DNA of 63,797 nucleotides, the filler included, from Reclinomonas americana ATCC 50394 (Eukaryota), in assembly GCA_048213135.1 (NCBI GenBank). It is 15 parts of 15 records of this genome, joined end to end, with 100 filler letters (N's around TTAATTAATTAA, not from the genome) between each part and the next. Parts side by side here need not be neighbours in the genome. Positions count along the whole stretch, not along the records: positions 3,750 to 16,938 come from AFZH01021992.1; 14 more parts are not named here. One strand, given 5' to 3'. This document shows, piece by piece, positions 12,201-15,200 of the stretch. The notes beneath the pieces are model-generated. The model saw only the letters and a program-made list of their open reading frames with translations. It made no database searches and was not told the DNA's origin. Both the position numbers and the translations under genes were made by a program. The first letter of the stretch is position 1; each line of letters opens with the position of its first letter.

Positions 12201-15200
12201 ATGGGCGACACGGACGAGAACTGTGGACCGACACACAGGAGTGAGTTTCGCGATAACCAGATCTTCAATGAAAACGCACTCACCTCCAGAGAGGAGTACG
12301 GTGGTCTTGGCATTGGTGAAGTCGACTGCGAGCCATGAATCGCACATGGTGAGCGCACCGGGAGCGTTGAAGCGACGATGGGAACGGTACTCACCATGCA
12401 GAACGGGCACGCAATGTCCATGGCGCTGGACACTGGTTCACTCAGCACGCGGTAAAAGCAATCCTCACACAGCGGATGCTCGGCTGGACAGCCGGGCAGG
12501 AGGAAGAACTTGAGTGGTGGCAAGGACTTGCAGCCGGCGCAGCGCTGCGTGCGCAATGTACCAGGTCAGTACGGAATGATTGCCATTCTCTCCCAGAACA
12601 CCCAGCGCGCTCGCACGCAACTGGCATCGGTGCCCAGGTCAGCAGGTACCATGCCTCGTCCATCAAGCTGTATTCTCCGGCAACAGCGCGCTGCGCCACC
12701 GGGCGTCGAACGGCTTCGTAGGTGAATTGTGGAATGGCGTACCGCGTGTTGTACGCATCCAGGTAGCCGCCAAAGTGCTCGCGGTCCTTGCGGATCGACA
12801 CCATGTCGGACTTGCTGTCCACTGCACACATACACATACACACACATGTGAGTGCCATCAAGACAGCCAGCAGCGCGAGAGGAATGCAAAAGAGACCGTC
12901 AAAATGAGCCCTCAGATCGCGCCCCTGGCACAGCGTCGTGAAACTGGCCATCGGCTGCTGCATCATGTGCATGCTGCGTGGATGTGTGTGAGACAGAGAG
13001 AGAGAGACACCAAGGTGGCGGTGATGATCAGAGAGATACACGCACATCGTGGAGGCCGACTTGTCATCCCACGACATGCCACTCAGCAGCTGCAACAGCG
13101 GTGCTCCGTTCCACGGAGCACGAACTTTCAATTCCTGCAACAAGGTGTCGATGACCTCTGTGTGTGTGTCGTGATACTATCAGCCGACTGCAACAGCAAA
13201 ACGTGTGACACCACCGGACACACACGAAACTCATGTCGAAATTGTCGGGCAGCCACAGTGTGGCACACACGGCTGGTCTCTTCAGTGTCTCGCACAGAAT
13301 GTCGACCTGCAACTGCACAGCCTCCACAGGCTCCACCTCGGTCTCGGCATTGATCATGGGATTTGCTCGCATGGTGACCACGGCGAGCAGGATGGTGTAC
13401 GCAGCCGTCACCCACTCCACCACGTACTGTGGTTCCTCGTCGGTGAGCAGGGCGAGCGAATAGAGGGACGAGCAACATGGCATACAGAATGCACACACCG
13501 GCTTGCCGTTCGTGGCCTCGCTGCGCAGCAGTTCGAGGAGGAAGTCGAGAGGACCGGCTTGCAGGTCGGCGGCTTCGAGCTGAGGGTGCACAGGGAAAGG
13601 GAGACAGAAAGGGACAGGGGAAGGGAGGCAGGAAAGGATGAGTGGGGGGAGTGAGAAACTGCGGGTGCGGAATCAAGATAGATGCACGAGAAATGGCATG
13701 ACTGAGACACACAGAGAGAGAGAGAGAGAGGAAAGCGAGGTGGGTACAGCAACGAGCGAGATGCGCAAATCACGGAATGATTGACACACACGCACGCACA
13801 CAAAGAGAGACAGGGGTGAAAGAAAGGGAGACAGAGAGACATTAGTGGGAGCGAGAAAGGCTATAGTGGGCGCACAATCAAGATAGATGCAAGAGACATG
13901 GCATGACTGAGACACATACAGAAGCGAGAGAGAGAGAGAGACAGCGAGTCAGCACGTCCCGACGCAACGACATACGGCGGCAGCGGCTCATCCGACGGCA
14001 CCAACTCGCGAGCGAGTTTGACAAAGGCCACATATGTCAGTCGCAGCAAGCCCTGATCCGCAGCCGTCGATGGTTCCGTGTAGACCTTGGCCACCTCTTG
14101 CACATTGTCGGCGATCGGATGCCACCGCGGTCTATCGAGGAGAAGAATGAGTCTCTCTGGTGGACACTCTCGACTAAGCATGCTTGCTTGCAGACGCAAC
14201 CCCTCATCGCCCACGCCAATCAACGGCAGCCCGATAGCCACCACCGCGGCAATGATCGACAGGTGCTGCAGCGACGGCAGGAAGCCTTCGGCATTGGGAA
14301 GAATCGTGGGCGACCGCTTCAACCCAAACTGCGTGTCGCGCAGGAGGCGCACAACGTCGCACACTGGCGAACTCGTCATGTGGTCCGGCAGACGCAGCAT
14401 GATGGTGATGAGCAGATGCAGCAGCTCGCGTCGTTCACGCACACGCTGCACCGACCAGCGCGCACGATGCCCCACATCTTTCTTGACCGACGGCGGGAAG
14501 CCGTCGTCAGTCAGCTGCCGCAGCTCCTTCAACACCTTCTGCAGCAGACCGTGCTCCGTCACCCACGACGCAGCCTCTTTCGCCACGGTCTCACTGTGCC
14601 GCGAAATGCCCTCCCCACGCAGATCCGCCACCATATCCACCATTCGCGCCAGACACTGCACCATCAGGCGCCGCTCCTCCATGTAAAACTCCAGCACCTT
14701 GACCTTGCCATCCTCATTGAAACGAAACGAGCTCCACGCTCGCGTCTCCCGAATGTACGTCTTGGTCAGCTCAGCCGCACGCGCCGCATCCACCGCCTAA
14801 AACGCGTGTGTCACAAGTGGGCCACTTCACACACGGACAAGCGCACAAGAGTGACGCACAGCAGCATCGCCGAGATCGCGATAGAACGATTTCTGCAATT
14901 CCGACGCGCCTGCATTCGTCACCACAGTTGTCGTTGTGCGCAAGGCAGACGGTGCAGCAGCTGCAGTGGCTGGAGCAGAAGAAGCAGCTCCACTTCCATT
15001 CTGCAATCCACCAAAGAGTCCACGACTGTGCTTGACTGTGGCCTCGCTCACTCGCGAAACCACGAGATCCTATTTGTTGGCGTGCAGTGAGCATGAGTCA
15101 GGAGAGAGTGAGTGAGGGACAGGGGAGAACGCACAGCAGGAAAGTCATCGTCGTCGAGCAAGTGCAACTCGTTGAGAACGCGCCACAGGACGCGGTAACT

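Follow-up and report, generated by a model that had tools for sequence, protein, structure and literature searches.

A predicted RING-type exon within a divergent Nup188-like gene of Reclinomonas americana

A 63,797-base stretch of the Reclinomonas americana ATCC 50394 assembly GCA_048213135.1, made of 15 parts joined end to end by filler (hereafter the window), carries on its minus strand one long, intron-rich gene, about 15257 to 6229, that would encode a divergent full-length Nup188, a scaffold protein of the nuclear pore inner ring. Within this gene we predict a real, well-formed RING-type exon. The phase-0/0 exon at 12544-12395 would add a 50-residue C3HC4 RING-type zinc-binding module at the place that in other Nup188s marks the end of the SH3-like insertion and the start of a variable loop. 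The probability that a Nup188-RING fusion protein exists is put at about 0.58; the motif, the phase of its splice sites, the codon usage and the Nup188 character and order of the flanking matches are seen directly, and the presence of the exon in the mRNA is the inferred step. The usual view of Nup188 is that of a solenoid with an architectural role only. If the fusion is true, a zinc-finger or ubiquitin ligase (E3) module would provide a new route for ubiquitin chemistry or an extra docking point in the pore inner ring, and the exon would be a clean case of domain gain by insertion of a single symmetric exon into a variable surface loop.

The RING exon occupies 12544..12395 on the minus strand and has 150 nt, or 50 stop-free codons, that translate as RCAGCKSLPPLKFFLLPGCPAEHPLCEDCFYRVLSEPVSSAMDIACPFCM. 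It is bordered by the acceptor acgcag/ (AG at 12546-12545; the slash marks the splice boundary here and below) and the donor /gtgagt (GT at 12394-12393), with phase 0 on both sides. A length of 150 nt with phase 0/0 means that skipping of the exon preserves the frame. An earlier note on this DNA had described the exon in these terms, as a 150-nt unit between phase-0 introns that carries a RING-like C3HC4 pattern and could be skipped without a frameshift, and the description was confirmed on the minus strand by the sequence, its translation and a regular expression. RING-HC domains follow the consensus C-x2-C-x(9-39)-C-x(1-3)-H-x(2-3)-C-x2-C-x(4-48)-C-x2-C. The exon has the spacing C-x2-C-x13-C-x3-H-x2-C-x2-C-x16-C-x2-C, and 8/8 ligands fit RING-HC (C3HC4) when judged by these consensus ranges. 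A PHD finger (C4HC3) and an SP-RING were considered and ruled out by ligand order. SP-RINGs have fewer ligands than eight. The SUMO E3 potential that the earlier note had granted the exon found nothing specific in its favor, and the eight ligands are as in ubiquitin-type RINGs.

The RING regular expression has a single match across the six frames of the window, and this match is the RING exon. In second-order Markov simulations of the window, at least one match appeared in 2 of 100 (mean 0.02). Three Pfam families alone were returned for the exon at E<=1, all of them RING-type and each under its gathering score:
zf-RING_5 on the RING exon, E 0.021, 15.2 bits against a gathering score of 27.9
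zf-RING_4 on the RING exon, E 0.041, 14.1 bits against a gathering score of 27
zf_RING-like on the RING exon, E 0.066, 13.6 bits against a gathering score of 27
The ESM Atlas neighbors of the exon that have any Pfam family all belong to RING families, with scores of 0.83-0.91 that serve as a lead only. A single-sequence AlphaFold2 model of the exon contains a helix at residues 24-35 as its sole element; this helix follows the His and has low confidence. The exon shares with canonical RING-HC domains (zf-RING_5, zf-RING_4, zf-C3HC4) the eight ligands, the consensus spacing and a CP-x-C last pair. It differs from them in falling under every Pfam threshold and in having no close relative in a word search of 5.8 billion proteins.

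A codon model was trained on 532 codons of the Nup188 gene outside 13000-12000. Per codon, the RING exon gets +0.149 when read in frame, against -0.33 and -0.39 for the two alternative frames. Values for the flanking exons range from +0.15 to +0.29, and those for the three putative introns are -0.38, -0.14 and -0.25. The open reading frame (ORF) of the RING begins at 12565, directly past the stop TGA at 12568-12566 and 7 codons ahead of the exon, and contains no Met before the first Cys. The exon therefore cannot begin a gene of its own and must lie inside a longer transcript. On the minus strand the closest coding exons belong to the Nup188 gene, and the plus-strand ORF across the exon is not coding-like. 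These features bear on the possibility that the gene model is an artifact, with two genes or a RING exon that belongs to some other transcript and no fusion protein. The home-made models, with several uncertain exon borders, leave room for such an error, but the missing upstream Met and the plus-strand result argue against it, as do the ordered one-strand profile matches from 14730 to 7675 that flank the exon on both sides (described below) and the freedom of 3750-16938 from N runs. An artifact of this kind is judged very improbable.

The identity of the host gene was established by homology. Crude, home-made dynamic-programming models give the gene 30-45 exons and about 2050-2160 codons, and outside the RING region they place the exon borders only approximately. 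The absence of any N run within 3750-16938 means that the gene is uninterrupted. The longest exon, 14796 to ~13951, had two matches at E<=0.001 among 1.84 billion representative proteins. One was a bacterial repeat protein that was judged spurious from its own sequence. The other, P0003, was found by both phmmer and BLASTP, and Pfam assigns it Nup188_N and Nup188_N-subdom_III; the Pfam Nup192 model also matches P0003 at residues 4-133, a known N-terminal overlap. The protein word search returned no relatives of the long exon, the ESM Atlas gave no usable match, the PDB sequence search gave 0, and 189 pattern matches in metagenomes yielded 0 confirmed. Collection from P0003 gave 23 Nup188s, and a profile was made from 18 of them after exclusion of P0006, P0008, P0010, P0012 and P0013 as near-duplicates or fragments. 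This profile was compared with every stop-to-stop ORF of 15 or more residues in the window, 1783 in total. Four matches had E<=0.003; they share the minus strand and follow the order of the profile, and three weaker matches fell in line with them; the remaining rows up to E 10 were scattered over both strands and were treated as noise. The gene and its profile matches are as follows:
6229..15257, minus strand, approximate span of the Nup188-like gene, ATG at 15257-15255 and stop near 6229
14284..14730, minus strand, N-terminal Nup188 match in ORF 14796-13864, profile 124-266, E 3.6e-13
13046..13164, minus strand, pre-insert motif match (LLQELKVRAPWNGAPLLQLLSGMS) in ORF 13176-12445, profile 462-509, E 0.3
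11318..11425, minus strand, match with GWTYQRLSE in ORF 11569-11228, profile 782-817, E 0.003
10974..11270, minus strand, match in ORF 11294-10929, profile 810-907, E 0.0026
ORF 10598-10083, minus strand, weak colinear match, profile 1016-1072, E 1.5
7675..8226, minus strand, C-terminal Nup188 match in ORF 8643-7615, profile 1536-1712, E 2e-11
ORF 7006-6542, minus strand, weak colinear match, profile 1863-1891, E 3.8

The GWTYQRLSE segment aligns with a Trp and a Tyr that all 18 Nup188s share (W768 and Y770 of P0003), and LLQELKVRAPWNGAPLLQLLSGMS scored with a sub-profile has an E of 0.029, the top value among the 1783 ORFs. Against the Nup188 profile, the spliced model reaches 90.7 bits (E 1.7e-30), with three colinear domains over positions 83-1918 of 1945 (profile 83-266, 810-1072 and 1553-1918), the second of which contains QPGLAGYFL opposite QPgLaiLfL of the profile. 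A run of the profile over 177,635 distinct PDB sequences with a limit of E<=10 listed 13. The name Nup188 is carried by 11 of these, from several organisms. A twelfth, 'Nucleoporin (DUF3414)', is matched end to end with 1051 bits, and the last, at E 0.24, is a designed helical filament. Neither Nup192 nor Nup205 appears as a chain name among these matches at E<=10, with the presence of such chains in the set assumed; solved Nup192 and Nup205 structures are reported in the available part of bioRxiv 10.1101/2021.10.26.465796. The lack of Nup192/Nup205 among the PDB matches indicates that the profile is Nup188-specific at the sensitivity used. With 90.7 bits, the gene scores above the most divergent solved Nup188 (64 bits) and below the yeast protein (166 bits).

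A Nup192/Nup205 paralogue as the host is the least probable of the alternatives and is considered extremely unlikely. It could appeal to the N-terminal match, which overlaps the part where the Pfam Nup192 model also matches true Nup188s (P0003 residues 4-133), and to the failure of a sub-profile to detect the SH3-like insert, which is Nup188-specific according to the available part of PMC3679522. The Nup188 profile finds no Nup192/Nup205-named PDB chain, and it also matches the middle and C-terminal parts of the gene. The only true match among the 1.84 billion representatives is a Nup188, and ~92 extra residues sit at the place of the SH3-like insert. These comparisons support a predicted divergent full-length Nup188 as the host rather than a Nup192/205 paralogue. 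The assignment to Nup188 made in the earlier note thus holds through the P0003 match, the ORF profile matches, the score of the spliced model and the PDB specificity, and its view that Nup188 resumes past the exon agrees with profile matches that lie in order on both sides. Like the fungal and vertebrate Nup188s, the gene has an end-to-end colinear profile match, which includes the pre-insert motif and the invariant W/Y, and its length of about 2050-2160 residues compares with 1574-2200 in the 18 aligned homologues. Unlike them it is very divergent, with single exons missed by the Pfam Nup188 models and an SH3-like insert that is not recognizable by sequence, and it contains a 50-residue RING-type module whose motif occurs in 0/23 homologues.

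Some features of the gene model stand apart from the RING region. At the junction past the long N-terminal exon (13953-13580, minus strand), a good donor, GGAC/GTGCTG, is in phase 1, and the best acceptor, ccctcag/CTCGAA, needs phase 0. The intron after this exon is unusually long (about 300-370 nt) and of low complexity. TG/CA and CT microsatellite-like runs occur in many introns of the Nup188 gene (e.g. 12860-12825 and 13950-13600).

The position of the RING exon was defined relative to the SH3-like insertion of other Nup188s. The SH3-like region of P0003 is at ~ residues 455-545, equivalent to profile 506-591, and a conserved Trp at its end is profile position 582. The RING exon falls between profile 509 and 782. 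The order along the gene is the LLQELKVRAPWNGAPLLQLLSGMS motif, two exons (~92 residues), the RING exon, ~200 residues and the profile 782-817 match. Among the 18 Nup188s, 22-61 residues separate the conserved Trp from the next conserved helix, a spread that indicates a loop tolerant of length change. The same stretch in this gene would have ~66-80 residues with the RING and ~16-30 without it. The exons, introns and splice sites around the RING exon are as follows:
12897..12973, minus strand, exon MHMMQQPMASFTTLCQGRDLRAHFD, codon score +0.145
12896-12822, minus strand, intron of 75 nt with a TG/CA microsatellite
12622..12821, minus strand, upstream exon (V)DSKSDMV...YAIPQFT...EAWYLLTWAPMP, codon score +0.154; its position makes it a candidate for the second half of the SH3-like insertion
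12545..12621, minus strand, upstream intron of 77 nt, donor CCA/gttgcg and acceptor acgcag/
12616..12617, minus strand, alternative donor GC/gtgcga, 5 nt past the weak donor, score 2.27; with it 12544-12469 reads as Ser/Pro/Ala-rich
12463..12468, minus strand, internal donor-like GTGAGG within the RING exon, score 3.03, required by the RING-less path
12326..12394, minus strand, downstream intron of 69 nt, gtgagt...ctcgcag, in frame and stop-free, codon score -0.137, donor 6.6
12284..12325, minus strand, possible 42-nt mini-exon STSPMPRPPYSSLE, phase 0/0, codon score -0.239, acceptor 2.8 (weak), donor 6.9
12221..12283, minus strand, intron of 63 nt, gtgagt...tccacag, in frame and stop-free
12059..12220, minus strand, next exon FSSVSPIFSPIALYFRQLHLLLQAL..., codon score +0.288, 3' end uncertain

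The earlier note had ended the upstream exon with YAIPQFT...WYLLTW, which is correct up to the Trp, but four further codons (APMP) precede the only usable donor. It had also taken this segment as the end of the SH3-like insertion, and here position agrees, and the sub-profile comparison given below does not recognize the segment. A single-sequence AlphaFold2 model of ORF 12972-12622 (117 residues, 25 of them intron-derived) is all helical with a predicted local distance difference test score (pLDDT) of 59.3; its most confident part is the intron-derived hydrophobic stretch, so the model is uninformative on the SH3-like fold. When the 185-residue ORF was aligned to full-length Nup188s with MAFFT, the fragment was spread over the whole alignment, which was not used for folding. 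The available parts of the structural literature describe the SH3-like domain as Nup188-specific and conserved in position (PMC3679522), as flexible and in contact with the Nic96 N-terminus of the neighboring spoke (PMC9061825), and as a brace of the Nup145N-binding cradle (bioRxiv 10.1101/2021.10.26.465796).

Splice sites were scored with position weight matrices (PWMs). The acceptor of the RING exon scores 7.4, the best of the 29 in the model, and its donor GTGAGT scores 6.6. A branch-point-like TACTGAC at 12571-12565 lies 21 nt ahead of the acceptor G. The introns that flank the RING region are 77, 69 and 63 nt, comparable to the homology-defined 67-nt GTGCGT...CAG intron of the mitochondrial calcium uniporter (MCU) gene in the window. 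Among upstream phase-0 GT donors, CCA/GTTGCG at 12621 is alone in retaining the WYLL codons together with an intron of >17 nt. When the exon was forbidden, the score of the gene model fell from 497.9 to 483.2.

Several points weigh against the fusion protein. The GTTGCG donor scores -2.3, the worst of the 29 in the model, and a PWM whose training left out the local sites gives it -4.9 compared with 1.7-7.9 for 26 others, while the donors of a RING-less path are within the normal range (2.3 and 3.0). The case for inclusion of the exon is built on genomic sequence. The Pfam RING scores of 13.6-15.2 bits are far under the gathering scores of 27-27.9, the exon model has a pLDDT of 52.9 and no Foldseek match in the PDB, and no relative of the exon was found in the proteins or the viral and metagenome contigs searched. 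The Pfam Nup188 models (PF10487, PF21093, PF18378) match 0/15 single ORF pieces at E<=1 or E<=10. An SH3 sub-profile scores the spliced 92-residue segment at -1.5 bits, and 1043 of 2000 shuffles scored as high or higher. Gly and Met stand at the positions of the usual hydrophobic contact and the linchpin of RING domains.

The weak upstream donor is the basis of a competing path in which splicing without the RING is the main or only form. Donor 12616 would replace 12621, the same acceptor would be used, ~25 Ser/Pro/Ala-rich codons would follow, and the donor TGT/GTGAGG at 12468 would close the exon. The two donors (2.27 and 3.03) fall inside the 1.7-7.9 range of the 26 others, whereas the RING path needs a donor of -4.94, and the 12468 donor splices in phase to 12325 or 12220, which keeps the path compatible with the downstream exons. 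The coding score of this path is -11.3 versus +7.46 for the RING path, however, and the totals are 0.52 versus 15.86. It leaves the complete eight-ligand pattern as a coincidence of the kind seen in 2/100 simulated windows with any match, ignores a strong GTGAGT exactly at the end of the RING frame, and has a second intron of 143 nt compared with 63-77 nt for its neighbors. We regard RING-less splicing as the main or only form as quite unlikely. A milder variant, in which both isoforms coexist, is possible.

Frame-preserving skipping opens another explanation, in which the exon is a relic: a captured fragment of a RING gene, or a former exon, that is intact yet skipped, with the mRNA joining 12622 to 12325 or 12220. 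The weak upstream donor, the frame kept on skipping (150 nt, phase 0/0) and the lack of detected exon relatives fit a relic, and without the RING the post-Trp stretch of ~16-30 residues would be near or inside the 22-61 of other Nup188s. A relic is harder to reconcile with eight intact ligands in a stop-free frame, codon usage that matches the host exons, the best acceptor of the model, a strong donor and a branch-point-like motif, and skipping would create an intron of 296 or 401 nt among neighbors of 63-77 nt. This explanation is unlikely, if less so than the other alternatives. Retention of the exon in a Nup188-RING fusion is the reading we favor.

The RING frame is open for 182 codons (12020-12565), through the RING exon, the 69-nt intron, the 42-nt mini-exon and the 63-nt intron. 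These segments are stop-free multiples of three, and the frame is therefore kept if either intron is retained or the mini-exon is lost. The mini-exon at 12284..12325 is itself uncertain; it and the introns on its two sides may form a single intron of 174 nt. Through the donors at 12616 and 12468, the first half of the RING exon may have two reading frames. Crude-model junctions that need GTT... donors (GTTGCG, GTTTGC, GTTCGT) occur at 8514 and 12621, and also at 12058, 11911 and 6673. Near 8514, GTT is the only phase-compatible GT, and this unverified junction hints at the use of GTT donors. Either the organism tolerates T at donor position +3 or the model is wrong at the GTT junctions.

Searches for relatives of the exon gave no homologue. 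The word search of 5.8 billion proteins produced 3 candidates, none at E<=10, and a PDB sequence search with the exon returned chance-level rows only, at E>=1.3 (GST A1, TRIM72). One viral and three metagenome loci matched by the exon were rejected as chance; all share one 8-mer, and no Cys pattern is present in their translations. Self-comparison of the window with blastn and tblastn found no repeat or paralogue of the RING region. Exon shuffling, the origin given in the earlier note, would be a hypothetical route for an exon with no relative among the sequences searched. The statement in the earlier note that known Nup188s lack a RING is borne out in the 23 homologues, which are from Mucoromycota, Basidiomycota, one fish, two bivalves and Capsella together with five unnamed sources (P0003, P0013, P0018, P0023, P0025) and include no named protist. 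The RING pattern is present in 0/23 and 18/23 are without any CxxC, and the precomputed Pfam lists of the 23 include no RING family. No Nup188 with a RING is described in the titles or abstract openings among the literature matches listed.

The RING would protrude on the surface of the N-terminal solenoid at the SH3-like corner. Splicing of the exon into the mRNA, the binding of two zinc ions in a cross-brace and the function of the module are all inferred. Three positions of a RING domain are presumably used for E2 contact: a hydrophobic residue between the first two Cys, a Pro after the seventh ligand and a linchpin residue after the eighth. By inspection, these three positions of the exon are occupied by Gly, Pro and Met in turn, so that on this assumption Gly and Met are atypical and the Pro is present. 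Given inclusion of the exon, the module may act as a zinc-stabilized protein-binding knob by the SH3-like region that is non-catalytic or dependent on a partner RING, a tentative assignment held at somewhat less than even odds. An autonomous pore-anchored ubiquitin E3 is a still more tentative possibility under the same condition. The knob is slightly preferred because two of the usual E2-contact positions are atypical. The available part of PMC6487577 ties RING activity to a conserved hydrophobic residue that contacts E2 and to a 'linchpin' residue, and it describes BARD1 and Bmi1 as RINGs unable to bind E2 that work as partners or structural modules. The exon may be analogous to BARD1 and Bmi1, a comparison drawn from two residue positions.

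A bolder proposal is that Nup188 would be an active RING ubiquitin ligase in which the donors 12621 and 12616 switch the next exon between RING and RING-less forms. This combination is speculative and improbable. If true, each pore would hold many fixed E3 copies beside the linker-docking SH3-like region, and ligase-plus and ligase-minus pores would exist. Nup358/RanBP2, a nucleoporin of the cytoplasmic filaments with SUMO E3 activity, is not known to have a RING or to be related in sequence. In fungi, linker nucleoporins dock at the SH3-like region. The sole comparable published case found is Arabidopsis HOS1, which the available part of PMC12626886 presents as a RING E3 and ELYS homologue modeled in the pore Y-complex, with published E3 activity. 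HOS1 and the predicted fusion would both place a RING in a structural component of the pore. HOS1 differs in being ELYS-like, in the outer rings and from another lineage, and the E3 activity of the RING exon is putative.

Other features of the window lie outside the Nup188 gene. A single 371-codon ORF at 4464-5579 (plus strand) encodes a WD40 beta-propeller protein. An acyl-CoA dehydrogenase at 16739-16936 (plus strand; Pfam middle domain, E 5e-11) is convergent with the MCU gene across an N gap. The MCU gene, at 17041-17653 (minus strand) beyond the N run, matches Pfam MCU on two exons (E 2e-15 and 1.7e-14) and has WDVMEP in the pore region. About 4 kb past MCU on the opposite strand, a gene with a clear EF-hand pair at 22021-22614 (plus strand, E about 1e-10) might encode a MICU-like regulator. 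A CT/GA- and CA/TG-rich low-complexity stretch at 17700-20300 gives very long SLSLS/ERERE 'ORFs' in several frames on both strands. The N runs of the window include 28 of exactly 44 N that form 14 pairs 12 bases apart, spaced every 2-5 kb (e.g. 3650-3749, 16939-17038 and 21920-22019).

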